A stretch of DNA of 64,000 bases from Limisphaerales bacterium (GTDB taxonomy: Bacteria > Verrucomicrobiota > Verrucomicrobiia > Limisphaerales > JAJOIW01). Every line of letters begins with the position of its first letter. Position 1 is the first letter of the stretch. A model generated the notes under the pieces. It saw only the letters and a program-made list of their open reading frames with translations, was not told the origin of the DNA and ran no database searches. The translations under genes were made by a program, and so were the position numbers. The DNA lies in the NCBI GenBank assembly GCA_965657355.1, contig CBFHOE010000003.1, positions 293,145 through 357,144 of the forward strand, in the 5' to 3' direction. Positions 4,966 through 36,453 of the stretch are shown in pieces.

Positions 4966-4966
4966 T

Positions 4967-5614: not shown

Positions 5615-5629
5615 GATGTCACTTGAAAA

Positions 5630-6160
5630 ATGTCTAACAACAAGCAATACAATTTGGAATCCGTTTTGGGCGATTTATCCGAGGAGATAGATGCCAGTTG
5701 CTTATTTGTAATGACGCCTTCCGGCATCATTGTTGGACATTGTGGGAGAATGCCTGCAATCGAAATAAATACTTTGGGCGCTTTGGTTTGGGGAATGTAT
5801 TCCGCCGCAGAAAAAATTCACGACCTTTTGGGCGATAATGAAATGCCAGCGCTTTCCCATTATACTTCCGCACAAAATTTTTTCGTATTTGGCATGCCCG
5901 GGGCTGCTGGGGTTTTGACAGTCGTCGGTAAAATGCCATTTTTGAGCCCTCCTCAGATTGATGTCATCAAAAAGGCTAGTCTGCAATTAAATGAACTGAT
6001 CCCTTCTGGATATAGTAATTGGGATGAAAATCTTATCTCAAAAGCGCCCGGCAGTCACCGCAGTGATGAAAGATTAAATGATCAAAGTCTCAATCAAGGC
6101 CTAGAGGAGGAATCCGATTTGTTTGAACTGGAATCCGATATCTTTCATTCCGATAAATAG
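5630..6160 (+). CDS. mglB: Roadblock/LC7 domain protein, MglB-like (putative GAP partner of MglA) with an acidic C-terminal tail
   Basis: 176 aa. The Roadblock pattern (ASCLFVMTPSGIIVGHCG...LGALVWGMYSAAEKI...NFFVFGMPGAAGVLTVVG) is followed by an Asp/Glu-rich tail. The gene starts 15 nt downstream of mglA. Confidence 0.7.
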   Translation: MSNNKQYNLESVLGDLSEEIDASCLFVMTPSGIIVGHCGRMPAIEINTLGALVWGMYSAAEKIHDLLGDNEMPALSHYTSAQNFFVFGMPGAAGVLTVVGKMPFLSPPQIDVIKKASLQLNELIPSGYSNWDENLISKAPGSHRSDERLNDQSLNQGLEEESDLFELESDIFHSDK

Positions 6161-9255: not shown

Positions 9256-10887
9256 TTAGAATTTTTCCGCTGTCAAGCCTGGCCAATCGTCTGTCCTGAA
9301 AGGTGTCAATGGAAGCCCCTCTTTATTCTGGACGTTGCAAACGGGATTGTCTGCCCACCCATATCTAACGGCTACTGGGTTTGGAACTTTATCACTCCAA
9401 ACTTCTACAGTGGTATTATTAATGATTTTTGCATTAGCCCAGTGAAATTTTCTATCCTCGCCAGCAATAGCAAACCCCACAGGTGTTCTGAAGTCAAATG
9501 TGTCCAGGCCTCCACCGACGTAATCAAATGTCACAGTTGCCTTACCGCCTTTACTAGAAAACGATTTATAGACGGGACTTCGATAAACGATTTCATATCC
9601 GTAGTCTTTTGCTAAAGCCCAGCGAGCTAACCTTTTAGCGACGTTCTGTTTATCTTTGGGATGGATGTCATGAGCTTCACCCAGGTCTATGATAACGGCT
9701 TCACCTGTATTTGGTAGCTTGGACATTGTCATTGTTTGTGCTTCTCGAAGTTCTGCCCAATCGCTTTCCGCCGGTTCAGTTTTTTCATCTCTGAAATCTG
9801 CCAACTGGACCCAATAGAAAGGGAAATCACCTTGCCCCCATTCATCTCTCCAATTTTGGATCATTAGTGGAAACAGATCACGATACTGATAAGCTCGACT
9901 TGCATTGCTTTCACCCTGATACCAGATAGTCCCTTTGATTCCGTATCCAATAATGGGTCTTAGGACTCCGTTATAAAGATTTCCAGGACGATGCTGGTTA
10001 GTTAGCTGGTTTCTTGGGCGTCTTGGTTTGGCTGGAATTTTCTCACCTTTGATTCTTGCCTGAAAACTTTTTCTCTGCCAGTCCTCTAGTGACTTCTGGT
10101 AATTTTTCATGGCACTATTGAGTTTGGGGTCAGCTTCGGTTTTTGCCCATCTTTCTAAAAGTGGAGTAAATACGGATTTGTCTTTGAGAAGATCTCTGCG
10201 AACCCATGCCTCTGCCGAAGACCCTCCCCATGCATTGTCGATAAGTCCGATTGGCATGTCCAGAGTCTGGTGAAGTTGTCTCCCAAAAAAATAACCAACA
10301 GCCGAGAAATTCTTAACAGTCTCAGGTGTGCATTTTTCCCATTGGCCTTCGAAGTCATTTTGAGGAACCTGCGTGCCAACCTGCGGAATGCTTATGAGTC
10401 TAATATCAGGGTAATTGGCACTCAATGATTCCAGATCAGGATCGTTCGAAGCATTGATGGACCACTGCATATTAGATTGCCCGGAACAGATCCAGACTTC
10501 ACCAAACTTTACATCATTAATCTCTATGGAATTATTTACCCCTTCGATTCTGAGTCTGACCTCAGTTTTTGCTGGTAAAGGGTCTAATAAAACAACCCAC
10601 CTTCCATCAGGGCCAGTTTGAGTTTTATGAGATTGGATGATTCTTTCAGAAGAGGCATCGATTCTCGTTTGCGTCCGTTTTGGCGCGGCGCCAGTACTGA
10701 CAGTAACTGAAACCTCCTCCCCAGCCAAAGCCCATCCCCATACTGGATTTTCCTGATCTCTTTGGAGAACCATGTGATTCCCGAACAAGGAAGATACACT
10801 TACGGCGGCAGGTGAGATCACTGGGTTTGCGAGCAACACGATGAGCAAGCATCCCCAAAACACTGGTGTTTTGGTTAAGATTTTCAT
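9256..10887 (-). CDS. Sialate O-acetylesterase (SASA/DUF303 family carbohydrate esterase)
   Basis: A signal peptide is present. The catalytic block [13 protein letters not shown] (GQSNM), then [11 protein letters not shown] and IWYQGESN, are typical of 9-O-acetylesterases. Confidence 0.85.
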
Positions 10888-19334: not shown

Positions 19335-20513
19335 TTAGGCGCTGCCCGCTCTGCCTTGTTCGGCATTCTTCTTTTTATTCTTATGGGTGCTCAAGGGTGC
19401 CGTTTGAGCTGTCCTTTTGTAATCTTTCCATGCTTCCATTTGAGGCAGCAAGTTTGGCAATCGTGGTTCCAACGGATAAAGGCGGTGGAAAACACCGGTG
19501 GACGAGCCGGAGATGGGCGGCACGATCCATGACCATTCGGCCTGTACTTCGTGGCCTTGAGATCGCTCGCTCTCACAGTGGGCGAGGAATTCGCGTGAAG
19601 CTTGGTGGTGGTCCACCATGCGCACACCTTCACGGGCGAAGGAATGCAATACGGCTTCGTTGAGCACGAGCAGGGCACGGTCCTTCCACAGGTTTCTGCC
19701 AAGCTGCAATCCGAGCCGCTCTGCCACTTCTGGAAGGAGGTTGTAGCGGTCGGCATCGCCGAGGTTGCGGGCACCGATCTCAGTTCCCATGTACCAACCG
19801 TTGAAGGGGGCGCAGGGAAAGACATCGTCTAGCGTGACCAGCATCATGTCTGTGATCGCCGGCACGGCGTGCCATCGCAACCCGAGTTTCGCGAACCAGG
19901 GATATTCAGGGTGTTCAAGTTCGACCTCCAATACCACCTCGCGCGGCAATTCTCGGACGACAACCCGTCCGTCCACCTCGATGACCAAAGGCAGCAAATC
20001 GAAGCGTCCGGGGTCAACCGGTGGCGACCAGCCGAGTGAGCGGACCCGCTCGGTGAAGGCCACGTTCATGGGGTCGCCTAACACCGAGCCGTCCGGGCGG
20101 CGGTATCCGGCGTAGCGGATCAGCTGGTGGTTCCATATCCGAATGCTCGGATGCCCTTCCCGCCACTTGGCGAAAACCGTTTGCGTTGGAATGATGCGGC
20201 CACCGTTGGTGGCTACGCGCAGGTGTTCGACACAGGCCTCGAATACTTCGTCGGCATTATCCAGCGAGCGGGCGTCGACGACCTGCAGCGACCGCCAGTG
20301 CAGACGTCCGATGCAACGCACTGATTCGCGCCAGGCTAGGCGTGCGGCATCGGCCAGCTTCATCCCGCCGGAGCCGTCCGACATGCTTTGAACTAGCTTC
20401 CAAGCCTCGTCAGCCCGCCAGCGACGCGCATGATCGAAAACACCGGCGGCGTAAGGGCACTCACCGCCAGATGTCGCTGCGCCGGTCGGGTCTTTATCGG
20501 AGATCGGATCCAT
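19335..20513 (-). CDS. nos: Bacterial nitric-oxide synthase, oxygenase domain only
   Basis: The motifs WRESVRCIGRLHW (haem-thiolate Cys loop), IRIWNHQLIRYAGY, PFNGWYMGTEIGARN (substrate Glu) and WSWIVPPISGS are collinear with Bacillus subtilis NOS as I recall it. There is no reductase domain. Confidence 0.9.
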   Translation of the reverse strand: MDPISDKDPTGAATSGGECPYAAGVFDHARRWRADEAWKLVQSMSDGSGGMKLADAARLAWRESVRCIGRLHWRSLQVVDARSLDNADEVFEACVEHLRVATNGGRIIPTQTVFAKWREGHPSIRIWNHQLIRYAGYRRPDGSVLGDPMNVAFTERVRSLGWSPPVDPGRFDLLPLVIEVDGRVVVRELPREVVLEVELEHPEYPWFAKLGLRWHAVPAITDMMLVTLDDVFPCAPFNGWYMGTEIGARNLGDADRYNLLPEVAERLGLQLGRNLWKDRALLVLNEAVLHSFAREGVRMVDHHQASREFLAHCESERSQGHEVQAEWSWIVPPISGSSTGVFHRLYPLEPRLPNLLPQMEAWKDYKRTAQTAPLSTHKNKKKNAEQGRAGSA

Positions 20514-22247: not shown

Positions 22248-22323
22248 GTCCCTGTAGTTCAAATGGATAGAACGACGCTCTCCTAAAGCGAAGATCTGGG
22301 TTCAATTCCCGGCGGGGGCACCA
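22248..22323 (+). tRNA. tRNA-Arg: tRNA-Arg (anticodon CCT)
   Basis: Cloverleaf folded by hand. The acceptor GTCCCTG pairs with CGGGGGC (two G-U pairs). The D arm is GTTC/GAAC. The anticodon arm is ACGCT/AGCGA with loop CT-CCT-AA. The T arm is CTGGG-TTCAATT-CCCGG. The discriminator is A and CCA is encoded. Total length is 76 nt. Confidence 0.9.
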
Positions 22324-22373
22324 TCTCTTCTTTCTTGCCCGTTGCTTTAATGGGATTTAAATTTTCTTATCTC

Positions 22374-24284
22374 ATGTGTAAGCAACGAAAAAAAAGTGGC
22401 AAAAATCATCAAAATAAGCGTAAGGCAACGTGCGGCTTGGTTTGTTTGATTACTTTTCTATTTCTTGCCTGCACCCCTGAAAGCCAAGATGGAGTCGAAA
22501 AATCTGGAGGAGAGAAAATTGAGTCAGCCGTTGCTGTGGATGCTCAGGACCTAATCGATGAGATAGTGACTGCCCCTGGCCTTGGTAACGAGAATATCAC
22601 TTATGTCGCTCCTCTTGCTGATGCATACAGCCGAATCGATCCCACGCGAGACGGGTGGGAAAGTGAGGCTTTCAGCGAAGCCGCCTCCAAGCAATTGAAA
22701 AATCTGGCAAAGGATCTGACAAATCCAAAAAAGGTCAAAACAGGACAATTTTACAATATTTTTGGATCTAGCCCATCTCTCAAGGTTCTACCTGAAGATG
22801 TAAAACCATTTTATTCCGACGATGTTTTCCAAATCAATCGTGGCGATCTTGAGCAGCTGAAGGAATTCAATGATCCAAAGCAGGCCATCAAGGCTCTGAT
22901 GGCACCAATATTGCAGTCTGAAATCATTCAGACAGGAGTTAAACTTTATAAAATTGAGCCGCGGACTGAGGGCGTCTTCACGCGTGTGATATTCCATGCG
23001 ACTGGGGAGTCAGAATCTGGTCGCATGCAAATTAACACAGAGTTTGATTGCTTGTGGGAGCCTAACGTCAAAAAGCCAATGCTCGAAAAAATGACATTGT
23101 CGTCCTATGAAGAGGCCATTCGAAAGAGTAAAGATGGGGATCCTTTGTTCTCTGATGTTACCGAAGCTGTTTTTGATGGAAATGATGTTTATATAAAGCA
23201 CTTGATGCGAAGTACGGACCATTGGAGATCCAGAATACCCAGAATATATGGATTGGACGTTGTGGCCAATCACGGCATAGCACTCGGAGATGTCAATGGT
23301 GATGGATTGGATGACCTCTACCTTTGTCAACAAGGTGGCTTGCCTAACCGATTATTTATTCAAAAACCAGATGGGGCGCTGGCAGATTTTACTGAAGAAA
23401 GTGAAACAGGCTGGTTGGATTATTGCTCCAGTTCTCTCATCATAGACGTCGATAATGATGGGCATAGAGATCTGGTTATCGCTCAGGATTTTAATCTCAT
23501 TTTTATGCGGAACAATGGAGAGGCCAAGTTTGAGCAAATTTTAAGAATTCCAGCCCATGCCCAAACTTTCTCTATAACTGCCGCTGACTATGATGAGGAC
23601 GGGGATCTAGATATTTTTGCTTGTGGATATAACCCATCAGGAGATCGGATACGTACGGGGGCACTTGGAGAACCCATGCCTTATCATGATGCACAAAACG
23701 GGGGTAGAAACATTTTTCTCGAAAACCAAGGGGATTGGGCATTTGTCGAGAAAACGTCCGAAGTCGGTTTCGATCAAAATAATAATAGATTTAGTTTTGC
23801 GGCGACATGGGTTGATTTTGACAATGACAATGATCTAGATCTTTATGTTGCCAATGACTACGGCCGAAATAATCTTTACAGAAATATTGGAGGTAAATTT
23901 CAGGACGCAGCCGCTGAGTTGGGTGTCGAAGATATGTCCGCAGGAATGTCAACCAATTGGGCTGATTTTAATCGTGACGGTGCCTTAGACCTTTATGTAA
24001 GTAATATGTTTTCGGCAGCGGGAAACAGAATTACTTTCCAGCGTCAATTTAAGCCGGGTACCTCCACTTCTCTAAAGGCACAATACCAGCGCCATGCAAG
24101 GGGGAACAGTCTCTTTCAGGGAAGTCCAGACGGAGGCCCGTTTCTGGATATTAGTGAATCCCAGGGAGTTGCCATAGGAAGATGGGCCTGGGGTTCCAGA
24201 TTCACCGACATCAATGGCGATGGATGGGAAGACATTGTCGTCGCCAATGGTTTCATATCCACCGAAGACACAGGTGATTTGTGA
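22374..24284 (+). CDS. FG-GAP/VCBS-repeat (CRTAC1-like) lipoprotein, N-terminal part of a frame that continues past an in-frame TGA
   Basis: The ATG at 22374 gives a lipoprotein signal (LITFLFLAC). Repeated xDxNGDGxxDL(Y/V) FG-GAP motifs are present (GDVNGDGLDDLYL, DVDNDGHRDLVI, DYDEDGDLDIF, DFDNDNDLDLYV, DFNRDGALDLYV, DINGDGWEDIVV). The frame stops at TGA 24282-24284. Confidence 0.8.
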   Translation: MCKQRKKSGKNHQNKRKATCGLVCLITFLFLACTPESQDGVEKSGGEKIESAVAVDAQDLIDEIVTAPGLGNENITYVAPLADAYSRIDPTRDGWESEAFSEAASKQLKNLAKDLTNPKKVKTGQFYNIFGSSPSLKVLPEDVKPFYSDDVFQINRGDLEQLKEFNDPKQAIKALMAPILQSEIIQTGVKLYKIEPRTEGVFTRVIFHATGESESGRMQINTEFDCLWEPNVKKPMLEKMTLSSYEEAIRKSKDGDPLFSDVTEAVFDGNDVYIKHLMRSTDHWRSRIPRIYGLDVVANHGIALGDVNGDGLDDLYLCQQGGLPNRLFIQKPDGALADFTEESETGWLDYCSSSLIIDVDNDGHRDLVIAQDFNLIFMRNNGEAKFEQILRIPAHAQTFSITAADYDEDGDLDIFACGYNPSGDRIRTGALGEPMPYHDAQNGGRNIFLENQGDWAFVEKTSEVGFDQNNNRFSFAATWVDFDNDNDLDLYVANDYGRNNLYRNIGGKFQDAAAELGVEDMSAGMSTNWADFNRDGALDLYVSNMFSAAGNRITFQRQFKPGTSTSLKAQYQRHARGNSLFQGSPDGGPFLDISESQGVAIGRWAWGSRFTDINGDGWEDIVVANGFISTEDTGDL

Positions 24285-24291
24285 AGTGTCT

Positions 24292-24315
24292 ATTGGCGGC
24301 AGGTCGTGTCGCAAT
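24292..24315 (+). promoter_or_regulatory. SECIS-like stem-loop 7 nt downstream of the in-frame TGA
   Basis: Pairs 24292-24294 with 24313-24315, G24295 is bulged, and 24296-24301 pair with 24307-24312 (one G-U pair). The apical loop is GGUCG. The loop GGU lies at +21 to +23 counting the U of UGA as +1. Confidence 0.35.
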
Positions 24316-26252
24316 CACCAGTTGGAAAAATTACCCCAGAAAATACTTTGAAATATCGACAAGGCTGGATGGCCCTTAACCGATTGCTTCATGAGGACCG
24401 TTCATTCAGTGGCAATGAAAGAAATTGTGCTTTTTTAAATTGCGGGGGAGGAAGTTTTGCTGACGTCTCGTCGGTTACTGGATTTGACTTTACAGACGAT
24501 GCCAGGAGTTTGGTTGTTTCCGATTGGGATTTTGACGGAGACCTTGATATATGGACCACAGCAAGGACGGCCCCTCGACTGCGGCTTCTTCTAAACGACT
24601 CTAAATCAAACTCGGATTGGATTTCTATCAAGTTAGTTGGAGATAGAAAAAAGATAAATCTGGATGCCATTGGAGCGAGAGCCGAGCTCTATATTTCCGG
24701 GCAACTTATCCCATTCATCAAAACAGTTCATGCAGGTGATGCCTTCTTATCTCAAAATTCAAGCTGGCTACATTTTGCATTTCCCGAAGGATCCCAAGTT
24801 GAAAAATTGGTTGTGCGCTGGCCGGGAGGAATTTTAGAAACCTTTGACACGGGGCTGACGCAAGGAAATAAGTATTTGGTTTCTCCAGGTGGGCGACCTT
24901 TGGAATGGAAACCTCCAATAAACCGCAAGTCTTTAATTCCATCCCAACCCAAATTAGCTAAACCCGATCCTACAGCTCGCATTGTTGTTTCTGGGCGCAT
25001 GCCATTGCCTCCAATATACGTTGTGGAGAATGGAACGGAATCTGAATACCCAGTAACTCAACTTAAAGGGCCTCTTCTCATTAATCTATGGGCCAGCTGG
25101 TGCGCTCCATGCAGGGTAGAACTCAAATCATGGGTGGGGCATTCAGAGGATTTTGAACAGGCTGGCTTACGATTACTGGCTCTCAACTCAGAAATAGCTT
25201 CTAAATCTGCAGCTGATAAGTTTTTAAAATCAATAAATTTTGGTTTTGAATCTCGTGATACCTCACCAAAAACGGTTCGCAACCTCGATTTATTTCAAAG
25301 ATCGATGCTGGATAGATGGACGGACCTGCCTGTTCCGAGTAGTTTCCTCTTAGACAAGTCGGGAAGGGTTGCCGTCATATACAAAGGCCCAGTTGAAGCA
25401 AAACAGATCCTTTCGGATTTGGAGCTTTTGGGAATGTCTCCAACTGAAGTCAGGGATGCTTCAGTCCCATTTGCTGGTCGATGGAGTTTTCCTCCCGCGA
25501 GCGGTAATCCGCTTTTAGTCAATTCGCAATTTGTCTCTGCAAATGAATACAACGAAGGCGTTGTTTATCTAAAACGATATGCCACGTTAGCTCAGGATAC
25601 TGGTCAACTTTCTCAAAAGGGACTCGGAGATGTCCATTATGTGATAGGCGTTATCGAAAGGAATAATGGAAATTTGCAAGGAGCCGAGGAGACCCTAGTT
25701 AAAGCGCAGCAATTTTCGCCAGATGATTTTCGTATACAGCGTGATTTGGCAGAGCTCTTTATCGAAACTCGGCAATTCGGAAATGCCTCTGAGCAAGTTT
25801 CCAAAATGATGTCTCATGCACCCCAGAACACAGAAGCTAAAAGACTCCAGGGACAAGTCTTAATGGGAAAAGCTAATCAGCTGAACGAGGCAGGCGAAGC
25901 AGCAAAAGCAATCCCACTATACCGGTCTGCTCTGCGTGCAAATAACAAGCTTTTGTCTGCCGCAAATAATCTTTCTCTTATTCTCTCTACATCTGCTGAC
26001 CCAGATTTGCGAAACCCTGAAGAAGCTAAAGCTCTTGGTCAAGTCCTTTGCCGATTAACTAAAAACAAAAATCCTGAGTATTTGGAGACATATGCTTTTG
26101 CTCACGCCAGCGCTGGAGATTTTCAGAGCGCGTTGAAATTCTCAAAGGCGGCTCGCAAATTATACGAGGCTGCCAATAATCAATCCAAGGTCTCCGAGAT
26201 AGATGCACGCATTAGAGATTATGAGGAGACTAAATCTCAGCCAAAGCCGTGA
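24306..26252 (+). CDS. ASPIC/UnbV domain + TlpA-like thioredoxin (WCAPC) + TPR region; same frame as 22374-24284
   Basis: GNERNCAFLN...DWDFDGDLDIW...GARAELYISG...AGDAFLSQNSSWLHFAF...LVVRWPGG is an ASPIC/UnbV domain. It is followed by LINLWASWCAPCRVEL (redoxin CxxC) and C-terminal TPR-like helices. There is no ATG or RBS of its own. Codons 24285-24305 (SVYWRQV) are open and in frame with the upstream ORF. Confidence 0.75.
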   Translation: MSQSPVGKITPENTLKYRQGWMALNRLLHEDRSFSGNERNCAFLNCGGGSFADVSSVTGFDFTDDARSLVVSDWDFDGDLDIWTTARTAPRLRLLLNDSKSNSDWISIKLVGDRKKINLDAIGARAELYISGQLIPFIKTVHAGDAFLSQNSSWLHFAFPEGSQVEKLVVRWPGGILETFDTGLTQGNKYLVSPGGRPLEWKPPINRKSLIPSQPKLAKPDPTARIVVSGRMPLPPIYVVENGTESEYPVTQLKGPLLINLWASWCAPCRVELKSWVGHSEDFEQAGLRLLALNSEIASKSAADKFLKSINFGFESRDTSPKTVRNLDLFQRSMLDRWTDLPVPSSFLLDKSGRVAVIYKGPVEAKQILSDLELLGMSPTEVRDASVPFAGRWSFPPASGNPLLVNSQFVSANEYNEGVVYLKRYATLAQDTGQLSQKGLGDVHYVIGVIERNNGNLQGAEETLVKAQQFSPDDFRIQRDLAELFIETRQFGNASEQVSKMMSHAPQNTEAKRLQGQVLMGKANQLNEAGEAAKAIPLYRSALRANNKLLSAANNLSLILSTSADPDLRNPEEAKALGQVLCRLTKNKNPEYLETYAFAHASAGDFQSALKFSKAARKLYEAANNQSKVSEIDARIRDYEETKSQPKP

Positions 26253-27863: not shown

Positions 27864-27933
27864 GTCAGCACTGTGATACTTTTACCAAGGTCTGCGAATA
27901 TGAAATGGAGTGAAAAAGGAGGGCCTTCTCGAA

Positions 27934-28725
27934 ATGTTTAGCCCGTGGAAGTTATTCATCCCAGCTCTGGTTATTCTGAGTTGGGGCCCACTCTCTGGGT
28001 GTTATCGTGAATCCGAAATTCGCATTTCCACTCCTATGACCGAGTCTGCCGAATTCGTAGGCAATTCGAGTTGTGAAACTTGTCATCAGCGTTATATCGA
28101 TGAATTTGGCTCGAGCCCACACGGACAATTTCACAACGAAAATGATTTGGTTGGGAAGTCCGGAGAGACTGGCTGTGAAAGCTGCCACGGTCCTGGAAGT
28201 CTTCACGTGGCTTCTGGTGGTAATAAAAAGGGTTTGATTGTCAACCCAGGAAAAAACCCTGAGTCGTGCTTGCAATGTCATATCTCGCAGCATGCTCAGT
28301 TTAGGTTTCCTTACCGGCATCCTGTCATTGAAGGGCGGATGAATTGCGTGGATTGCCACGATCCCCATGGCCAAAACATTTTTAGACCGGCGGGCGGGCT
28401 CATTAGCAAAACTTCAAGGCAGTTCTGTGGGGAGTGTCATCCGGCACAATCGCACGCATTTGTCTTCGAGCATGCAGCGATGACAGATGGATGCCAATCA
28501 TGCCACGAACCGCACGGATCTCCTAACCGGAAGATGTTAACGACACCTGGTCCTAATTTGTGTTTGAAATGTCATGCACAAGTTGTCGGGCCGTCTATTG
28601 CGCCAGGAAATTTAATCATAGGTGCCATTGACCACAGTAATTTCGTGAGTCAGGGAACTTGTTGGAGCTCAGGCTGCCACACAGCGGTTCACGGATCGAA
28701 TGTTCAACCGACACTTCTTTATTAG
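27934..28725 (+). CDS. Multihaem c-type cytochrome lipoprotein (7 CXXCH + 1 CX4CH; doubled-CXXCH type)
   Basis: The RBS AAGGAGG (27916-27922) lies 11 nt before the ATG at 27934. The lipobox is in ALVILSWGPLSGC. The haem motifs are CETCH, CESCH, CLQCH, CVDCH, CGECH, CQSCH, CLKCH and CWSSGCH, all within 263 aa. Confidence 0.85.
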   Translation: MFSPWKLFIPALVILSWGPLSGCYRESEIRISTPMTESAEFVGNSSCETCHQRYIDEFGSSPHGQFHNENDLVGKSGETGCESCHGPGSLHVASGGNKKGLIVNPGKNPESCLQCHISQHAQFRFPYRHPVIEGRMNCVDCHDPHGQNIFRPAGGLISKTSRQFCGECHPAQSHAFVFEHAAMTDGCQSCHEPHGSPNRKMLTTPGPNLCLKCHAQVVGPSIAPGNLIIGAIDHSNFVSQGTCWSSGCHTAVHGSNVQPTLLY

Positions 28726-28754
28726 TGGCTCAACCAAGAGAGATCAATAAGCCC

Positions 28755-31187
28755 ATGTATCCGATTTGGAAAATAGTTTCTTTTTGGTCCTTGTTTCTCC
28801 TCCTTTCCTTCAAGGGGCTTGTTTACGGTGAAGATTTAGATTGGTCCGAGGGAGTAAATCTAAAAGCGATTCCTGAGGCTATAGGTCGAAAGGTGGATTT
28901 TAAGTCCGAGGTCTGGCCCATATTAGATAGGCATTGCATAAAGTGCCACGGTTCCTCGAAACCTCAATCAGGTTATCGGATGACGAGCCGAGAACTCGCC
29001 ATTGAATCGGGAGACTACGGTGGAAATATCATCGTTGGTGATGGGTTTAGAAGTCCGTTAATTCACTTTGTGGCCTACGCTATTGAAGATTGGGAGATGC
29101 CTCCGATTGACGACAGAGAGGGAAACAAAAAACTTAGCTTGAAGGAGATATCCATTTTGCGTGCGTGGATAGATCAAGGAGTTGAATGGGAAGAGGTATC
29201 ACCTCAAGTTGTCAGTGCCAATGTAAAGTCTACCGCCAGAATTTGGTGGGTAGAGGGCAATAAGAATCAGTTTCGGCAGCTTCAGGGATATAGGGAGGAT
29301 GATGGTGCTGGGCTGACCTCATTCTCTCTTAACAACCCGGTAAAAGACGGTGCTGAGTGGTATTTAAACGGATCTGTATGGGATCGTCCTGACGAATACA
29401 AACTTTCTATTGGATATGACCAGCCATCGGGTATTTGGTTCGAAAGTGGAATAGAACAATGGAAATCATTTGATACTGCGACCGGTGGGTATTGGAGTCA
29501 ATTTTCAAACCCAGCGCCAGTGCTTCCTGGAATCATAGCCCAGACGCACAAGGATTTTTATTTCAAGTGGGGCATTCAAAGTGATGATGGTCCCAGTCTT
29601 TCTGTCTCTTACAACATTGCCTCTGTGGATGGACAGAAGTCACTCACATCATTTGGCCCTGTAGCTCAAATGATAGGCTCTAATTATACCTTGCGATCAA
29701 TAAGGCCTGCGACCAAAGACCGGGATAATCAAGTGCATCGTTTGGACATACTTCTTAAATCCAGCGAGGACACGAATCTTTATTGGGAGGATCAAGCCAC
29801 GATCGTATGGCAATCTCTTGATGAGACCAGAAGTGAGTATGCTTCATTCGGGGCTGGAGTGCCTAGTCCTGAAGAAAGGGTAGACCGCAGAGACACCTGG
29901 GATTCTTTACGTGGTTCCAATTCCATTCGAATGCTCAAAAAACTCGATGATATGTGGCAACTTTCTTTGGGGCATTCTTTCGCCCTCATGGAGGGTGAAT
30001 CAGTTTTTGCTGAGAATTTCATAGGGCTAAGCTCTCCCTTTTCTTTTCAGGGGCCTGTGGGACAAGGGATTATTTTGAACCAGCATAGCCAAATGGGGAA
30101 CGTTAACCTAAGCAGTGGACCGTGGTTTGGTGCCGTGAATTTCACATCCGGAATTCAGTTTGATTGGCTTACCCAAGATGGAGAAGGGCAAATTATACCT
30201 TTTCCTGGGGCTAATCCACAGACCTTGGATACAGGTTGGGATCAAACGCGATTTACAGAGTATTTAAGAGCAAACTATACAGGGTTAAAGAAACAGACGA
30301 TATACGTTGAAACGAGATTCCGCCAGATGGGGTATGATCAGAGTGAGTTACTCGAAACTGTCGTCAACCGAATGACGGAAGCGGACCACCGGTACGGCCA
30401 GTATTCTGCTGGATGGCAGATGAGGCCGCATTCTAAATTAGGCATACATCTGAGAGGAAAGCTCTCTCACGAGATAACGGAATTCAATCATCCATTGGAT
30501 CAGGAATTTGGAGTTCAGGGTAATGGATATCCCGCCTTTTTGAGAGATCGTTATTCGGAAAGTATGGAGTTGGATGCACGAATATCTTGGAGGCCTCACA
30601 GCCAGCTGCAATTTGAGAAAAATTACAAATGGGCTAAGACTGACTTTGAGACGACAACTGATGCGGCCAGAGATTTCAGCGGTTCGATTCTTTCCCCGGG
30701 GGGGAATATAGATTCTGCTGAATACGAGACTCATACGACGGGATTGACGATGACATGGACGCCTGCCCCTCGAGTTCACGGAACGGTTCATGGCAATGTT
30801 ACTCGTTGGGATATGGCTAGCCAGGCCAATGGTTTTGCTGGTGTGTCACCTTTCAAGGGGTGGACATGGTGGGCCGGCACATATTGGTCTTACATTCTTA
30901 ATACGAAGACGAATGTATTTTTCTCCGGGGATATAAACAGGGCTCATTTTTTTGATGGTGATAGTGGTTTTGCTTTTGCCCATGGACTGGATTATTTGTG
31001 GAAAAGGGCTCGGGCTGGAATACATCACAAATTGCGTCCTAACTTTAGTGCCTTTGCTGAATATTCATTTTCTATCTGGGATCAGCCATCTTTTGGCGGA
31101 TTCAATGACTTCGAAGCTCATGGGATCTTTATTGGATTTGACTGGGATCTTGAAGTGGAGAAAAAACAAAAAAAATCGAAGAATTAG
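28755..31187 (+). CDS. Fusion of an N-terminal monohaem PSCyt1-type cytochrome c domain to a ~650-aa putative outer-membrane beta-barrel
   Basis: The ATG at 28755 gives the signal peptide MYPIWKIVSFWSLFLLLSFKGLVYG. It is followed by VWPILDRHCIKCHG...WEMPP...ISILRAWIDQG (planctomycete cytochrome c domain). The remainder is rich in short alternating aromatic/polar strands (TIYVETRFRQMGY, LGIHLRGKLSHE, ELDARISWRP, TGLTMTWTP, FAEYSFSIWD, GIFIGFDWDL). Confidence 0.7.
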   Translation: MYPIWKIVSFWSLFLLLSFKGLVYGEDLDWSEGVNLKAIPEAIGRKVDFKSEVWPILDRHCIKCHGSSKPQSGYRMTSRELAIESGDYGGNIIVGDGFRSPLIHFVAYAIEDWEMPPIDDREGNKKLSLKEISILRAWIDQGVEWEEVSPQVVSANVKSTARIWWVEGNKNQFRQLQGYREDDGAGLTSFSLNNPVKDGAEWYLNGSVWDRPDEYKLSIGYDQPSGIWFESGIEQWKSFDTATGGYWSQFSNPAPVLPGIIAQTHKDFYFKWGIQSDDGPSLSVSYNIASVDGQKSLTSFGPVAQMIGSNYTLRSIRPATKDRDNQVHRLDILLKSSEDTNLYWEDQATIVWQSLDETRSEYASFGAGVPSPEERVDRRDTWDSLRGSNSIRMLKKLDDMWQLSLGHSFALMEGESVFAENFIGLSSPFSFQGPVGQGIILNQHSQMGNVNLSSGPWFGAVNFTSGIQFDWLTQDGEGQIIPFPGANPQTLDTGWDQTRFTEYLRANYTGLKKQTIYVETRFRQMGYDQSELLETVVNRMTEADHRYGQYSAGWQMRPHSKLGIHLRGKLSHEITEFNHPLDQEFGVQGNGYPAFLRDRYSESMELDARISWRPHSQLQFEKNYKWAKTDFETTTDAARDFSGSILSPGGNIDSAEYETHTTGLTMTWTPAPRVHGTVHGNVTRWDMASQANGFAGVSPFKGWTWWAGTYWSYILNTKTNVFFSGDINRAHFFDGDSGFAFAHGLDYLWKRARAGIHHKLRPNFSAFAEYSFSIWDQPSFGGFNDFEAHGIFIGFDWDLEVEKKQKKSKN

Positions 31188-31273
31188 CCTGCTAACTATT
31201 GACACACAATGTAGTGAGAGTGACTTTAGGCCAGGCTCTATCAAACATAGACCCCAATTATAAGCCAAATTTC

Positions 31274-32053
31274 ATGAATAAAATTAAGGACCAACCATCG
31301 CGTCGTAACTTTATAAAAACCTTTGCATATGTGGCTGCTGCAGGGTGCGGTTTGAAGAAACTTTGTGGGAACTCAGCCATAGGCGCGCTACTACCTGAGC
31401 CTGCTACTGGTGCTGGTTATATCCACCTCAAGACCCAAGATTTTCCAGAGATGAAAACCAATGGGCAAACCTTGAGATTGGGATTCACAGCAATTTCCGG
31501 AGGAGGGAGCCAACGCCGCCCGGTGAATACGACTTTTTTTCCATTACTTATCACGCGCAATGGTCCTGGTGATTATTTTGTGGTTGATTCCAATTGTACA
31601 CACGCTAGTTGGATGGTTCAGCAATCCGGAACTCGACTACGCTGTCCTGTCCACGGTTCGCAGTGGCAATTGGATGGAACCCGGATTAGTGGTCCGGCTT
31701 CCGCTCCTTTGAAAAAGTATGACTTCGTATGGCAGCCTACTGGCGAGGGATCCGAAGGCACTCTTTCTATAGAAGTTCCCAAACTTGGATACTCCATAGA
31801 ATTACAGCCAGTTGAAGAGGGCGAATTTCTTGAATTTAAGTTTTTGGCCAGGCGCGCGATCAAATATCAAATCCTGTTTCGTGAATCGTTCTCGGAAAGC
31901 TGGCAAGTTGTCGAGCACGCCCAAACAAAGGGTCAGGAGCCAAATCAAACTCAGTTTGTTAAAAATGATTTCGACTCATTTGTGAATATCTGGGTGAAAA
32001 AACCAAATGCCCAGGGGTTTTTTGGTATCAACAATATTGTTGAAAAAGTTTGA
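31274..32053 (+). CDS. Tat-exported Rieske [2Fe-2S] domain protein with an uncharacterised C-terminal domain
   Basis: The ATG at 31274 gives MNKIKDQPSRRNFIKTFAYVAAAG (a twin-arginine signal). The cluster ligands are CTH...CPVHGSQW. The bc1-type disulfide cysteines are absent. Confidence 0.8.
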   Translation: MNKIKDQPSRRNFIKTFAYVAAAGCGLKKLCGNSAIGALLPEPATGAGYIHLKTQDFPEMKTNGQTLRLGFTAISGGGSQRRPVNTTFFPLLITRNGPGDYFVVDSNCTHASWMVQQSGTRLRCPVHGSQWQLDGTRISGPASAPLKKYDFVWQPTGEGSEGTLSIEVPKLGYSIELQPVEEGEFLEFKFLARRAIKYQILFRESFSESWQVVEHAQTKGQEPNQTQFVKNDFDSFVNIWVKKPNAQGFFGINNIVEKV

Positions 32054-32085
32054 TTAGAAGTTGACTCATTCCCTCTCCACTCGCG

Positions 32086-32751
32086 ATGGATATTTCAATA
32101 GCTGTTGCCACAGGTAACAAGCACAAGCTCCAAGAAATCGCTGTTATCTTAGGCCTGAGTCCTGAGTCGATTTACTCATCGCATGATTTTGAAGGTTTTC
32201 TTGATCCTGTCGAGGATGGGGAGTCCTTTGCTGAAAACGCTACGATAAAAGCGAAAGCATTAGCTCAATTCATCCAATCACAACACCCGCACCATCCCTT
32301 CCTATGTGGTCCTGGATTGAAGTTAGTCATATCAGACGACAGCGGCCTCGAAGTGGATGCATTAGGTGGACGACCAGGTATTCATTCTGCACGATTCGCT
32401 TCAACTGAACTTGGTATTGAAGGTAATTCTCCTGATTCATCAAATAATGAGAAGTTACTGAGGCTTTTAAGCACAACAGATCCTGATAAGAGGCAATCAA
32501 GATTTGTTTGTGTCATCGCTTGTCTGCCTCTAAATGCACCGGTGATGAATGTTCAGACGTTCCATGGGGATTGTCCTGGGCGTATTTCCAATACACCTTC
32601 AGGACTTCATGGTTTTGGATACGATCCGCTCTTCATTCCCGATGGATATGAAGAGTCGATGGCCGAATTGGGGGAGCATACGAAGTCAAAAATTAGTCAC
32701 CGGTCAAGAGCCCTAGAGGGATTTAAAAAATACCTCCACTCCATTTTATAA
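32086..32751 (+). CDS. rdgB: dITP/XTP pyrophosphatase (RdgB/HAM1 family)
   Basis: IAVATGNKHKLQEI, DDSGLEVDALGGRPGIHSARF, GFGYDPLFIP and KISHRSRAL are present. Confidence 0.9.
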   Translation: MDISIAVATGNKHKLQEIAVILGLSPESIYSSHDFEGFLDPVEDGESFAENATIKAKALAQFIQSQHPHHPFLCGPGLKLVISDDSGLEVDALGGRPGIHSARFASTELGIEGNSPDSSNNEKLLRLLSTTDPDKRQSRFVCVIACLPLNAPVMNVQTFHGDCPGRISNTPSGLHGFGYDPLFIPDGYEESMAELGEHTKSKISHRSRALEGFKKYLHSIL

Positions 32752-32941
32752 TTCGTTACCATTTGCCCGGCTTTTGGCCCCACAACTAAGCTATCGGGCA
32801 CTTTTTCGCGGAGAAAACGTTCTCTCAATGAAAGGCTTAATAACTCCAATTAAACCATGGAAAAATGTTTCACTTCTTCGTTTTTCTGGTATTATTGGGA
32901 AAATGTCTCTTTCAAACGTTAGAGACCAACCTTTACTAACC

Positions 32942-34477
32942 ATGAAAAGACTTTTCTTATCAGCCACTTTCGCAACCATCTGCGCAATGGGTTCTGTTCA
33001 GGCAGAGGTCAATTTTGCAAAGGATGTATTACCTATTCTACGAGATAATTGCATTAGCTGCCACGGAGCCAAAAAGAAGAAGGGCAGACTTCGCCTGGAC
33101 ACCGAGGCCTTTGCTCACAAAGACTCTCTAATCCCAGGCGACCTTGAGGGGTCTGAGTTATACCAACGAGTCATCCTACCTGCTGACGACGATGACATCA
33201 TGCCTCCATTGGACGATGGCCGAAAGCCACTCAAAAAGGCAGAAATCGAAATTATTAAAAATTGGATTCAAGAAGGTGGCAAATACACCGGAGTTGACAT
33301 AATCACTCCTGCTGCTGAAAAACCAGTAGAAGCTGCTGAAGTTGCGGACAAGATCGATTCATCTTTTGATTTTAACCAAGACATCCGTCCTATACTCGAC
33401 AGTCTTTCAGCTGATCAAAAAACAAAACTGATGGCTTGGATTGCCAAAGGTGCTGAGATGCCACAAGTTAAAGCATCGGAACCTCAGTTGGTTGAGACAG
33501 AAGTTTCGGATGCGGAGAAGGCCGCCATAGCAAAACTCCAATCTGAAGGAGTTCTGGCTATGAAGGTTGCGCAAAATGTCAATTGGGTACAGGCGAATTT
33601 CCGATTGGCTGGCGAAGCCGTCAAGGATGAAAACATAGCTGTTCTCAAAGATATTAAAAATCTGACAGATTTAGATTTATCAAAGACAAGTGTTACTGAT
33701 TCCGGCCTGGCTCATCTTAAGGATCTGACCAACATTACCCGCCTCAATCTTAACAACACTGCTATAACTGATGAGGGACTTAGTCACCTTGTTGGACTAA
33801 AGAATCTAACCTATCTCAATCTTTACGGCACAGCAGTGACTGACAAAGGTCTGGCTAAATTAAGTAAAATACAGACGCTTAAAAAGCTTTACCTTTGGCA
33901 GACAAAAGTGACCGATTCAGGCGCAAACGCCCTCAAATCTGAACTCCCATGGATTTATATTAATCGAGGAATCGAATTAGCAGCGCTTGCTCCAGAACCC
34001 AAGAAGGAAGAACCGAAAAAGGAGGCGGCACCTAAACAGGCAGCCAAGGCCCCAGTCGAAAAGAAAAAACCCGAGCCATCATCAAAGGCCAAAGGTCCTT
34101 CTATTTCTGACGTTATATTATTTTTAAGCCAGGCAGATGCGCCTCAGAAGGCTGCACCGAAAGCGAAAGCTGCGGTTGCCAAAAAGAAGGAGACTCAAAA
34201 GAGTGCTGAAGCCAAAGGCCCGTCTATTTCTGACGTTATATTGTTTTTGAGCCAGGCAGATGCGCCTCAGAAGGCTGCACCGAAAGCGAAAGCTGCGGTC
34301 GCCGAAAAGAAAGAGACTAAGAAGAGCGCTGAGGCAAAAGCTCCCTCTATCTCCGACATTATTCTCTTTTTGAGTAAATCTGAAGTAGCCAAGGACAAGG
34401 CTGTTTCGGCAAAGAAAAAAGTAAAAACGAAGCCAACTGGCTTGACAATAGCCGAAGTCGTTCTGAGCCTGAACTAA
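32942..34477 (+). CDS. Secreted PSCyt1 cytochrome c domain + leucine-rich repeats + Lys/Ala-rich tandem-repeat tail
   Basis: The ATG at 32942 gives the signal peptide MKRLFLSATFATICAMGSVQA. It is followed by VLPILRDNCISCHG...IMPP...IEIIKNWIQEG, about five LRRs (LTDLDLSKTSVTDSGLAHLKDL...) and then 41-aa repeats. Confidence 0.8.
   Translation: MKRLFLSATFATICAMGSVQAEVNFAKDVLPILRDNCISCHGAKKKKGRLRLDTEAFAHKDSLIPGDLEGSELYQRVILPADDDDIMPPLDDGRKPLKKAEIEIIKNWIQEGGKYTGVDIITPAAEKPVEAAEVADKIDSSFDFNQDIRPILDSLSADQKTKLMAWIAKGAEMPQVKASEPQLVETEVSDAEKAAIAKLQSEGVLAMKVAQNVNWVQANFRLAGEAVKDENIAVLKDIKNLTDLDLSKTSVTDSGLAHLKDLTNITRLNLNNTAITDEGLSHLVGLKNLTYLNLYGTAVTDKGLAKLSKIQTLKKLYLWQTKVTDSGANALKSELPWIYINRGIELAALAPEPKKEEPKKEAAPKQAAKAPVEKKKPEPSSKAKGPSISDVILFLSQADAPQKAAPKAKAAVAKKKETQKSAEAKGPSISDVILFLSQADAPQKAAPKAKAAVAEKKETKKSAEAKAPSISDIILFLSKSEVAKDKAVSAKKKVKTKPTGLTIAEVVLSLN
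34091..34400 (+). repeat. In-frame 123-bp tandem repeat (two near-identical units plus one degenerate unit)
   Basis: The units start at 34091, 34214 and 34337. Each encodes KGPSISDVILFLSQADAPQKAAPKAKAAVA(K/E)KKETxKSAEA. Units 1 and 2 differ at only a handful of mostly synonymous positions. Confidence 0.85.
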
Positions 34478-34530
34478 TTGTTGAAAGTTCAAGCTAAATT
34501 GATACATTTTTCAATAATAACCAAAATCCT

Positions 34531-35160
34531 ATGAAGATAATCAAAACACTTCTCTCAATCATTGTATTGGCAACAGTGACTTCGTCATATGCTGCTTCCA
34601 ACGAAAAATGCCCGATCTCCGGAAGACCGGTGAATGCTGAAGTCTCTGAAAACATCAATGGCAAAGATGTTGGATTCTGCTGCAAGAATTGTAAAAAGGA
34701 CTTCACTTCTAAGTTGAACCTCCAGGACAAAGAGGGACCAGGAAAATGCCCGATTTCAGGAAAGCTAGCTTCTCTAGATAATCAAATTCTCCATGTAAAA
34801 ACTGAAGCTGTTCAGTTTTGTTGTAACAACTGTCAGGCAAAATATGCCAAAGAAAACAAATTAGCCATCAAGGACGGCAAACCTGGCAAATGTCCAATGT
34901 CTGGTCAGCCTGCCAAAGCGGACAAAATGGTTATTCACAACGGCGAGAAAGTATTCTTTTGCTGTAACAACTGCAAAGGAAAATATGTTGCGAAGGTCGC
35001 TACAGTGAAAAATGAAGGGCCTGTCAAATGCCCTCTTTCAGGAAAGGAAACCAATCCTGAAACCATGATGCTTGTTACCAAGACCTCTAAAGTCAATTTC
35101 TGCTGTCCAAATTGTCCTAAGGCATACACCAAAAAACACTTCGCCAAAGCCGGCAAGTAA
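34531..35160 (+). CDS. Secreted protein made of four Cys-rich repeats (C-P-x-S-G ... F-C-C-x-N-C; YHS/TRASH-like)
   Basis: The signal peptide is MKIIKTLLSIIVLATVTSSYA. Four ~45-aa units follow: KCPISGRP...VGFCCKNCKKDF, KCPISGKL...VQFCCNNCQAKY, KCPMSGQP...VFFCCNNCKGKY and KCPLSGKE...VNFCCPNCPKAY. Confidence 0.7.
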   Translation: MKIIKTLLSIIVLATVTSSYAASNEKCPISGRPVNAEVSENINGKDVGFCCKNCKKDFTSKLNLQDKEGPGKCPISGKLASLDNQILHVKTEAVQFCCNNCQAKYAKENKLAIKDGKPGKCPMSGQPAKADKMVIHNGEKVFFCCNNCKGKYVAKVATVKNEGPVKCPLSGKETNPETMMLVTKTSKVNFCCPNCPKAYTKKHFAKAGK

Positions 35161-35185
35161 AGGAATTCTCAATTAGCTTTCACAA

Positions 35186-35219
35186 AGCCCTGCCTATCCA
35201 GCAGGGCTTTTTTATTTTT
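35186..35219 (+). terminator. Intrinsic terminator
   Basis: The 8-bp stem AGCCCTGC (35186-35193) pairs with GCAGGGCT (35201-35208) around a 7-nt loop, followed by TTTTTTATTTTT. Confidence 0.8.
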
Positions 35220-35319
35220 AACTGGAATTTATAAACCGGATTGGCCAACCAAATCCTGATAAATAAATAAATTTTGGTGTATTTGATGGTTGGAACTGAT
35301 AAAAAGAGCTTTAAATCCC

Positions 35320-36453
35320 ATGAGTGATACTAATGAAAAAAAGACAGTAGAAAACGATCCCAATAGTGAGGATCCAAAGGGCATTGGTAAACCGCAAAAA
35401 TTTATGGGGAAATTGAGTTGGGGGATATTGGCTTTAGGTCTTGTTATCCTGGGTTTTGCTCTAAATTTGGTTGTTGGGAAGGGAGCCCCGATTTCTGAGT
35501 ATCTGATTCTATTCGCCAAGCATTCAGTTTCATTAGTTGTTATCCCATTAGTTTTGAGTTATGTCGTTTGGGTCAGCACAAAATGCAATAAGACCCTATC
35601 AGGGATAGTTTACTATATTGCCTTTATTGCGACATTTGGTTGGATACTCGCCCAAGAGGTTTCGAGCCCACAAAACTTTAAGACCTTTGGGAGTTTTGTT
35701 AAAAATAGATATGACCTTCAGAAGAAATATGACTTAGCAAAAAAGGAAAATAAAAAGACAGACGAGTTAGTTCAAAAAATATTTTTAGTAAACAGTAACT
35801 ACCTCGCCCAAATGTCCAGCCAAAGTGATGGCGCGCAGAAAGAATTATTTCAAAACATACTTACCTTTACATCTTTAAAACACGAAAATTCAGCCAAATT
35901 ATCTGAGCTGGAAAAGTCGATTTTCACTGATACCTTCGTAAATTACCCCGACCTTAGAGAGAACACTCAGGCACAAGAGAAAATTAAAATTATAAATGAA
36001 TACCTAACGACTATTGAAAGTCTGCGGAGGAATAGCGAGGCATTCAAAGAGTTCTTTGGGGAGGATAAGAGTGACGGAATATTGCTGAAGAGGATGGAAT
36101 TGAGATTCTTATTTGAGAAAGTGATTCTTCCTCACGCCGATTCTGTTAATAAGCTTGAGACGTATTATTTATCCTGTGAGAATTTTGTGACTAATTTAAA
36201 AAAACTTATTCTTTGGACGTCGGAGAACACTGACCAATGGACATACGAAAGTGACGAAAGTGCGCAGCCGGCGAAAATAACAATTAAGTTAAATTCACCC
36301 GAGGCTGAAAATTTTTTCTCTGCATTGGTTAATGAGACAGAGCAGGGGTTAAAAGAGTTGAATGCCGCCACCCAAAGGATCATGAATCCATCTTCAGAAA
36401 ATTCAAATCAATCTGGTGATGCAGAATCTAAAAAAGATAATCCTGCAGAATAG
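35320..36453 (+). CDS. Hypothetical membrane protein (four predicted TM helices followed by a long helical soluble region)
   Basis: Long ORF. The ATG at 35320 is preferred to the TTG at 35290. Hydrophobic segments include GILALGLVILGFALNLVV, SLVVIPLVLSYVVWV and IVYYIAFIATFGWILA. I recognise no family. Confidence 0.6.
   Translation: MSDTNEKKTVENDPNSEDPKGIGKPQKFMGKLSWGILALGLVILGFALNLVVGKGAPISEYLILFAKHSVSLVVIPLVLSYVVWVSTKCNKTLSGIVYYIAFIATFGWILAQEVSSPQNFKTFGSFVKNRYDLQKKYDLAKKENKKTDELVQKIFLVNSNYLAQMSSQSDGAQKELFQNILTFTSLKHENSAKLSELEKSIFTDTFVNYPDLRENTQAQEKIKIINEYLTTIESLRRNSEAFKEFFGEDKSDGILLKRMELRFLFEKVILPHADSVNKLETYYLSCENFVTNLKKLILWTSENTDQWTYESDESAQPAKITIKLNSPEAENFFSALVNETEQGLKELNAATQRIMNPSSENSNQSGDAESKKDNPAE

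Follow-up and report, generated by a model that had tools for sequence, protein, structure and literature searches.

An in-frame UGA as a probable selenocysteine codon in a CRTAC1-like FG-GAP/ASPIC gene with a thioredoxin domain

Gene architecture at the locus

The DNA analysed here is a 64,000-nucleotide stretch from a Limisphaerales bacterium (contig CBFHOE010000003.1, positions 293,145 to 357,144), referred to below as the window. It contains, on the forward strand, a gene of ~1,300 codons (22350..26252; roughly 143 kDa; final stop TGA 26250-26252) with a frame that, according to the sequence and its translation, is interrupted once, by a TGA codon at 24282-24284. The open reading frames (ORFs) on either side, 22335-24284 and 24306-26252, share one frame, and translation across the stop reads ...STEDTGDL, stop, SVYWRQVVSQSPVG.... 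An initial annotation of the locus had described two ORFs in one frame parted only by this TGA, with which our coordinates and translation agree, and had put the codon forward as a candidate site of selenocysteine (Sec) insertion. That proposal is supported by the conservation of the TGA in related loci, by a downstream hairpin that appears to be selected as RNA, and by the fit of this hairpin to the consensus of bacterial selenocysteine insertion sequences (bSECIS). We assign a probability of roughly 0.88 to the reading that UGA 24282-24284 is a genuine Sec codon, as judged from comparative sequence data.

All parts of the gene described in the following lie on the forward strand. The likely start is ATG 22350 or ATG 22374, with TTG 22335 as the earliest possible one; the gene cannot begin upstream of TTG 22335, because a tRNA-Arg(CCT) gene (22248-22323, forward strand) lies directly upstream, 26 nt before the first ATG, and ends at 22323. 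In view of this adjacency, either the two genes are co-transcribed or the promoter lies inside the tRNA gene or upstream of it. The N-terminus carries a predicted export signal (22350..22472, translation MGFKFSYLMCKQRKKSGKNHQNKRKATCGLVCLITFLFLAC) composed of basic residues, then a hydrophobic segment and finally a lipobox-like FLAC, the Cys of which is encoded at 22470-22472. Clear lipoboxes (LSAC, LCSC) are present in several homologues, and the signal and lipobox-like N-terminus suggest that the protein is exported.

FG-GAP β-propeller repeats occupy 23259..24281, immediately before the UGA (Pfam FG-GAP_3, E = 6e-34; FG-GAP, E = 8e-18), and Pfam places one more FG-GAP repeat after it, at residues 44-90 of the C-terminal half; the propeller thus spans the stop codon. 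Downstream follow a Cys codon (TGT, 24426..24428) 48 residues after the UGA in the sequence NERNC-AFLN, which encodes a candidate resolving Cys, an ASPIC/UnbV domain (24666..24848; Pfam PF07593, E = 8e-10), a thioredoxin-fold domain (25029..25373; Pfam AhpC-TSA, E = 1.9e-8) and C-terminal TPR repeats (25629..26171; Pfam TPR_19, TPR_14 and TPR_2). The thioredoxin-fold domain matches NCBIfam ResA/TlpA models below their full-length cut-offs, and its CxxC motif is WCAPC (TGCGCTCCATGC at 25101-25112); fold and CxxC together class it, on sequence grounds, as a TlpA/ResA-like thiol-disulfide oxidoreductase. The Pfam matches in the N- and C-terminal halves confirm the FG-GAP/ASPIC-thioredoxin-TPR organization given by the initial annotation. 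FG-GAP repeats followed by UnbV_ASPIC in one chain with a CRTAC1 fold, the fold being judged on the model of the homologue P0008 described below, place the protein in the CRTAC1/ASPIC-UnbV FG-GAP family.

Elsewhere in the window TGA acts as an ordinary stop, as had been noted for the ORF that ends at 4963-4965. A reassigned genetic code, in which UGA would encode Trp or Gly, was rejected, since TGA also terminates 9 of the window's 39 other long ORFs. A scan of the whole 64-kb window revealed no other plausible gene with an in-frame TGA.

Conservation of the UGA and of the downstream hairpin

A 352-residue query spanning the site was compared with 5.8 billion proteins. Close relatives (60-79% identity) match exactly the part before or the part after the stop: about 75 different N-half proteins all terminate at the same ...DL, the annotated C-half proteins begin at the Val-Val shortly after it, and no close homologue among the proteins searched reads through the site. 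At the DNA level, we collected 79 loci from species-representative genomes, which cover Verrucomicrobiota, Planctomycetota and Acidobacteriota (including Terriglobia and Thermoanaerobaculia) together with one Krumholzibacteriia bin and one Dehalococcoidia bin, that is, at least five phyla; the closest relatives of the window organism are metagenome-assembled genomes (MAGs) of Verrucomicrobiia or Verrucomicrobiales. The codon after ...DL is TGA in 79/79 loci, followed in frame by S[VF][YF]WR[QHR]VV, and TGA is also found in four extra paralogue copies beyond this set. The downstream frame remains open for 540-720 codons in nearly all complete loci, the exceptions being L012 (121 codons) and L045 (263 codons), and it closes with a mixture of TAA, TAG and TGA.

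At least 13 MAGs carry two or three copies on different contigs, and some copies are in tandem. The closed MAG chromosomes OZ240232.1, OZ245024.1 and OZ244053.1 are among the sequences with the gene. Second copies of the TGA gene adjoin or lie near the first at L030:2387, L058:2424, L012:261-292(-), L031:163-194(-) and L090:1-464; at L090 the C-terminal half of a Sec form is located directly upstream of a paralogue with Glu at the site.

Taken alone, one in-frame stop in one window could not be told apart from a recent nonsense mutation (pseudogene) or from a sequencing or assembly error, the alternatives that the initial annotation had listed. The same TGA in 79/79 related loci is more than chance. 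With TGA present in 79 independent assemblies and in additional paralogues, and with intact downstream frames over 540-720 codons, both pseudogene formation and sequencing error are therefore excluded for practical purposes.

A SECIS-like hairpin begins 7 nt after the TGA (24292-24315, forward strand) and consists of nine pairs, a bulged G at 24296 and the apical loop GGUCG at 24302-24306, a structure recovered here as previously described. Its conserved core spans 24294-24313, with the upper stem formed by 24297-24301 paired with 24307-24311. The core pairs (U13-A32, G14-C31 and the five upper pairs C16-G30 to A20-U26) are kept in 99-100% of the 79 loci, and three of the five upper pairs display compensatory changes: C16-G30 to A-U; G18-U28 to A-U, G-C or C-G; and A20-U26 to G-C. 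Some of these changes alter the protein, as in CGCCGGGUCGCGGCG, which encodes WRRVAAQ, and in AGGCAGGUCGUGCCU, which encodes WRQVVPQ. The lower stems are probably not essential, because they are often broken across the 79 loci.

Synonymous sites within the hairpin are nearly frozen (Gln CAG in 56/57, Val GTG in 63/63 and Ser TCG in 57/57), and the Ser and Pro codons right after it use all of their codons. Mean normalised codon entropy is 0.37 in the hairpin, compared with a mean of 0.91 for the 221 further conserved columns taken from these proteins (p = 1.2e-5). As a control, the upper stem is intact in 78/79 Sec loci, compared with 3/9 loci of read-through (non-Sec) homologues, and two of these three are nested in the Sec clade. 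Together, these comparative data indicate that the hairpin is under RNA-level selection.

The published bSECIS consensus comprises an apical loop of 3-9 nt, an upper stem of 4-16 bp, a G at the loop's first two nucleotides (G[G|U]), a UGA-to-loop distance of 16-37 nt and a minimum free energy (MFE) of -7.5 kcal/mol or lower (PMC13188914, Fig. 2A). The hairpin lies within all of these bounds, with a 5-nt loop, GGUCG, whose first two positions are G, with U next, a stem of 5 bp plus the bulge plus 2-4 bp, a UGA-to-loop spacing of 17 nt and an MFE of -10.5 kcal/mol.

The same region bears on the possibility of a genuinely split gene, in which the N-terminal half ends at the UGA, the C-terminal half is made separately after (re)initiation at GTG 24306, with later assembly of both chains and a role in translational coupling for the hairpin. 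Gene callers annotate two genes everywhere, and a GTG is found 6-7 codons after the TGA in 76/80 loci; however, this GTG belongs to the hairpin and to the conserved Val-Val, a Shine-Dalgarno-like motif occurs in just 5/80 loci, and in L042 and L056 a stretch of 25-33 codons offers no possible start. From the TGA to the GTG, six codons (S-V/F-Y/F-W-R-Q) intervene that are conserved at the amino-acid level together with the uninterrupted homologues, and a break at this point would cut inside a helix and inside the propeller. Furthermore, a stop that served coupling alone need not always be TGA, and the homologues with Cys, Ser or Glu at the site that nest in the same clade are single chains. We consider a split gene very unlikely for these reasons.

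Residues at the site and the proposed redox role

The homologues that read through the site number 80, of which 17 came from the first search and the other 63 are cluster representatives retrieved from 1.84 billion proteins. The residue aligned with the UGA is mostly Ser, Glu, Asp, Asn, Ala or Met; Gly occurs in P0106 and P0124, and Cys in three of the 80 (P0160, P0176 and P0215). P0160 is a single protein of 1,184 residues with the architecture of the window protein and 43% identity to it over 807 residues, and its DLCSFFWRQVV aligns with DL-U-SVYWRQVV, the site codon being TGC. At the P0160 locus (L082:2134-2180) the hairpin is still fully paired and the GGUCG loop is kept, which suggests a fossil SECIS that has outlasted a recent exchange of Sec for Cys.

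In a crude neighbour-joining tree, all 65 full-length Sec forms fall into one clade of 69 tips, and the four non-Sec tips nested in this clade are P0160 (Cys), P0153 and P0156 (both Ser) and P0165 (Glu). The initial annotation had named Cys at the aligned position as support for Sec and a variable non-Cys residue as evidence against it, and the outcome is mixed: Cys forms exist, P0160 among them within the Sec clade, but most distant homologues, outside that clade, have variable non-Cys residues. A DNA-pattern scan of metagenome contigs for TGY at the site detected no Cys form and gave two spurious matches; the collection contained no positive control, and with TGA in place of TGY the pattern matches 67/79 of the family loci.

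Called genes on the contigs of P0004, P0009 and P0013 (L084, L085 and L086) are flanked by overlapping FG-GAP fragments in other frames. These 'short' read-through homologues are probably full-length genes broken by frameshifts of long-read assembly, so that their lengths are underestimated.

Two further features accompany the Sec forms, although the counts that follow are not phylogenetically independent. The Cys at +48 (NERN-C; codon 24426) is present in 53/65 proteins of the Sec clade, with six more carrying a Cys 1-5 residues away, whereas outgroup homologues have Val at this position; all three homologues with Cys at the site also carry the +48 Cys. The thioredoxin CxxC is found in 64-65 of the 65 Sec-clade members compared with 5/80 other homologues, and four of these five are the nested exceptions. 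Thioredoxin-like domains of the outgroup have degenerate motifs such as WATTAPLC and WALSAPAS. This pattern is what a redox unit of Sec, Cys and CxxC would give.

The structural context of the site was examined in a model of the Ser-form homologue P0008 rather than of the window protein itself (predicted local distance difference test, pLDDT, 86; predicted template modelling score, pTM, 0.89). In this model a loop leads into an α-helix that has the Sec-equivalent residue at its second position, and the next β-strand starts with the +48 position. A nucleophile at the N-terminus of a helix is typical of redox-active Cys and Sec, and the modelled position suggests that the same may apply to the Sec site here. 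The best solved match to the P0008 model is murine CRTAC1 (9etn_A; E = 2e-25; template modelling scores 0.63/0.68), followed by fungal FG-GAP lectins; a sequence search of the PDB returned no match.

Based on these observations, we propose the following sequence of events. The hairpin 7 nt past the UGA, with its GGUCG loop on a 5-bp stem and its bulged G, would act as a bacterial SECIS and bind SelB-GTP-Sec-tRNASec with the ribosome at the UGA, and Sec would be inserted in competition with release factor 2. The predicted product is one exported polypeptide of ~1,300 residues (~143 kDa) comprising a CRTAC1-like FG-GAP propeller, ASPIC/UnbV, a TlpA-like thioredoxin domain and TPR repeats, in which Sec would occupy the N-terminal turn of a helical insertion in the propeller. 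Sec may be the redox nucleophile and pair with the clade-specific Cys at +48 in a selenenylsulfide, which the fused CxxC domain could re-reduce, as in the relay cycles of peroxidases or reductases. When selenium or SelB is limiting, translation would stop at the UGA and release a 649-residue fragment with an incomplete propeller.

Several points weigh against Sec insertion and the redox role. No selA, selB or selD was detected by Pfam among the 39 other long ORFs of the 64-kb window, and a tRNA scan of the window and of the flanks of 60 related loci detected no tRNA-Sec. Indirect support for a Sec machinery in hosts of the family comes from the planctomycetes with ASPIC/FG-GAP candidates and full sel sets, and from a candidate Sec codon in a SCO1/SenC gene at L068, both described below. 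The aligned residue outside the Sec clade is variable and usually non-Cys, which is atypical for a catalytic Sec. The putative relay is deduced from the co-occurrence of residues, and the proposed Sec insertion itself from comparative sequence data. Two of the five upper pairs are dictated by the amino-acid sequence R-Q-V-V-S/A. An Rfam scan of the site gave noise only, with no match to a SECIS family, which is expected given that bacterial SECIS elements are family-specific. Finally, the hairpin taken by itself does not exceed shuffled sequence in stability (z = +0.42 at its MFE of -10.5 kcal/mol), and its significance therefore derives from the comparative data and not from thermodynamics.

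A conserved stop with a downstream structure being typical also of read-through signals, we considered a SelB-independent programmed read-through, in which a near-cognate tRNA (Trp, Cys or Arg) would decode a leaky UGA and the hairpin would act as a stimulator that sets a regulated ratio of short to long product. However, the hairpin has specific features of a bacterial SECIS at the right spacing, including an fdhF-like GCAGGUC apex, and the co-evolving +48 Cys and CxxC point to a redox residue at the site. In addition, the Cys orthologue keeps the hairpin, as fits a Sec-to-Cys conversion, and planctomycetes with ASPIC/FG-GAP candidates have full sel sets. We give such a read-through little credence and retain selenocysteine insertion as the preferred reading of the UGA.

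Neighbouring genes and side observations

There is no strong conserved gene neighbourhood among the related loci. The commonest same-strand neighbour, found in the upstream flanks of ~14-20 of them (e.g., L026:3262-4233), is a PEP-CTERM protein of ~320 residues, which is not universal and does not adjoin the window gene; by eye, and with no family search, it appears LamG/concanavalin-like.

In the window, a gene with a bacterial nitric-oxide-synthase oxygenase domain (19335-20513, reverse strand; Pfam NO_synthase, E = 3e-124), uncommon in genomes of the Planctomycetes-Verrucomicrobia-Chlamydiae (PVC) type, is located ~1.8 kb upstream of the putative selenoprotein gene. Downstream, a run of redox and metal genes (27910-36453, forward strand) encodes a multihaem cytochrome with paired CXXCH motifs, two PSCyt1 planctomycete-cytochrome proteins and a Rieske protein. 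Within this run lies a TRASH/YHS-like metal-binding protein (34531-35160, forward strand) with no in-frame TGA; YHS-domain proteins are a catalogued selenoprotein family. Further away, a small Ras/Arf-like GTPase gene (4967-5614, forward strand) within 2896-6160 sits between two ORFs that lack Pfam matches; the first of these ends in TGA, with the GTPase start codon one base later.

Scanning the related loci for in-frame TGA codons yielded mostly noise from spurious ORFs in high-GC DNA, the exceptions being the tandem paralogues and one SCO1/SenC candidate. The latter (L068, an acidobacterial MAG; 9832-10578, reverse strand; Pfam E = 7e-18) is located ~4 kb from the FG-GAP gene, and an in-frame TGA at 10266 takes the place of the second Cys in its copper-binding motif CxxxC (C-T-E-R-U-P). 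With a stable hairpin after the TGA (-23.6 kcal/mol, z = -3.3), this gene encodes a candidate selenoprotein; SCO1/SenC is not named in the table of the 2026 catalogue (PMC13188914, Table 1).

Relation to known selenoproteins and to the CRTAC1 family

The initial annotation did not know the family as one of selenoproteins, which holds for the catalogues but not for the literature as a whole. The 2026 catalogue of 119 prokaryotic selenoprotein families has no FG-GAP, ASPIC or CRTAC1 entry (PMC13188914, Table 1), the family goes unmentioned in the main texts of the papers on deep-Sep and BSepDB, no NCBIfam selenoprotein model covers the site, and a literature search on Sec use in Verrucomicrobiota produced nothing relevant. 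Selenoprotein candidates described as 'ASPIC/UnbV FG-GAP' were, however, listed with no further analysis for the planctomycetes P1 and P2 by Kim et al. in 2016 (PLoS One, PMC4807772, S8/S9 Tables), and the genomes of both have full sets of selA, selB, selC and selD (PMC4807772). These candidates resemble the window gene in their domain description and in their annotation as a pair of neighbouring genes with a UGA between them; three of the four were reported to have a SECIS, and their closest read-through homologue is acidobacterial with Gly at the site, in agreement with P0106 and P0124 (PMC4807772). Their hosts are planctomycetes, whereas the closest relatives of the window organism are Verrucomicrobiia or Verrucomicrobiales MAGs, and the comparison is one of descriptions. 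The proposed mechanism is the ordinary bacterial one, and the family is not wholly new, having been flagged once in the 2016 table, presumably at the same site.

A broader reading, for which the odds seem to us evenly balanced, is that these genes form a large family of exported selenoenzymes that no catalogue lists and of which the window gene is a founding-type representative; in this family a CRTAC1-like propeller would have gained a catalytic Sec at an ancestrally non-Cys position, a partner Cys and an in-cis recycling CxxC in a single event, and then spread as several paralogues per genome across Verrucomicrobiota, Planctomycetota and Acidobacteriota. If so, PVC bacteria of sea and soil would have in this family a major selenium sink, and the FG-GAP/ASPIC fold would have a catalytic use that is new. 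In all public annotations examined, the gene is divided into an "FG-GAP/VCBS protein" and an "ASPIC/redoxin/TPR protein"; the calls for hundreds of PVC and acidobacterial genes would thus be wrong, and the selenoproteomes given for these abundant bacteria of sea and soil would be too small. The gain of Sec and its later replacement offer a clean case for study, as the outgroups are nearly all non-Cys and the rare Cys, Ser and Glu forms are nested, one of them with the hairpin. The interest of the family lies in its breadth, in the unusual protein context of the Sec and in the near-absence of Cys forms.

Among known elements, the closest comparison is with the SECIS of E. coli fdhF. The initial annotation had stated that fdhF carries GCAGGUC; the E. 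coli K-12 fdhF sequence does contain it, at +19 to +25 from the U of the UGA, compared with +18 to +24 in the window. The loop G and U lie at +21 to +23 in the window and at +22 to +24 in fdhF, where the SelB contacts are G23, U24 and the bulged U17. In both genes an in-frame UGA is followed directly by a hairpin in the coding region with a bulged nucleotide on its 5' arm. The two differ in the loop, which has 5 nt (GGUCG) in the window and 4 nt (GGUC) in fdhF, and in the bulge, which is a G below a 5-bp upper stem in the window and a U below a 3-bp one in fdhF; moreover, the lower stem of the window hairpin is weakly conserved, and the proteins are unrelated.

With vertebrate cartilage acidic protein 1 (CRTAC1) and the ASPIC family, the window protein shares the FG-GAP propeller and the ASPIC/UnbV domain, and read-through relatives are labelled 'CRTAC1 family protein' by NCBI. 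It differs from CRTAC1 by an additional N-terminal region of ~300 residues, the thioredoxin domain and the TPR repeats, and sequence identity to 9etn is only 18%. CRTAC1 is not known as a selenoprotein or redox enzyme.

The catalogued TlpA/ResA selenoproteins (UGC-containing TlpA, the WAxxUGC ResA-like NF041054 and the thiol-disulfide isomerase-like UxxC proteins) have in common with the window protein a periplasmic-type thioredoxin fold, a distribution in marine and PVC bacteria and a link to selenium use; the window protein scores 22.6 bits against NF041054, which has a cut-off of 300. In the catalogued proteins Sec is located inside the thioredoxin motif (UxxC or UGC), whereas the window protein has an ordinary CxxC in that motif and the proposed Sec ~270 residues upstream, in the propeller. 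This would place Sec outside any thioredoxin-type motif, in a β-propeller related to that of vertebrate CRTAC1, a protein of unclear biochemical function for which a redox site in the bacterial relatives provides a testable lead.

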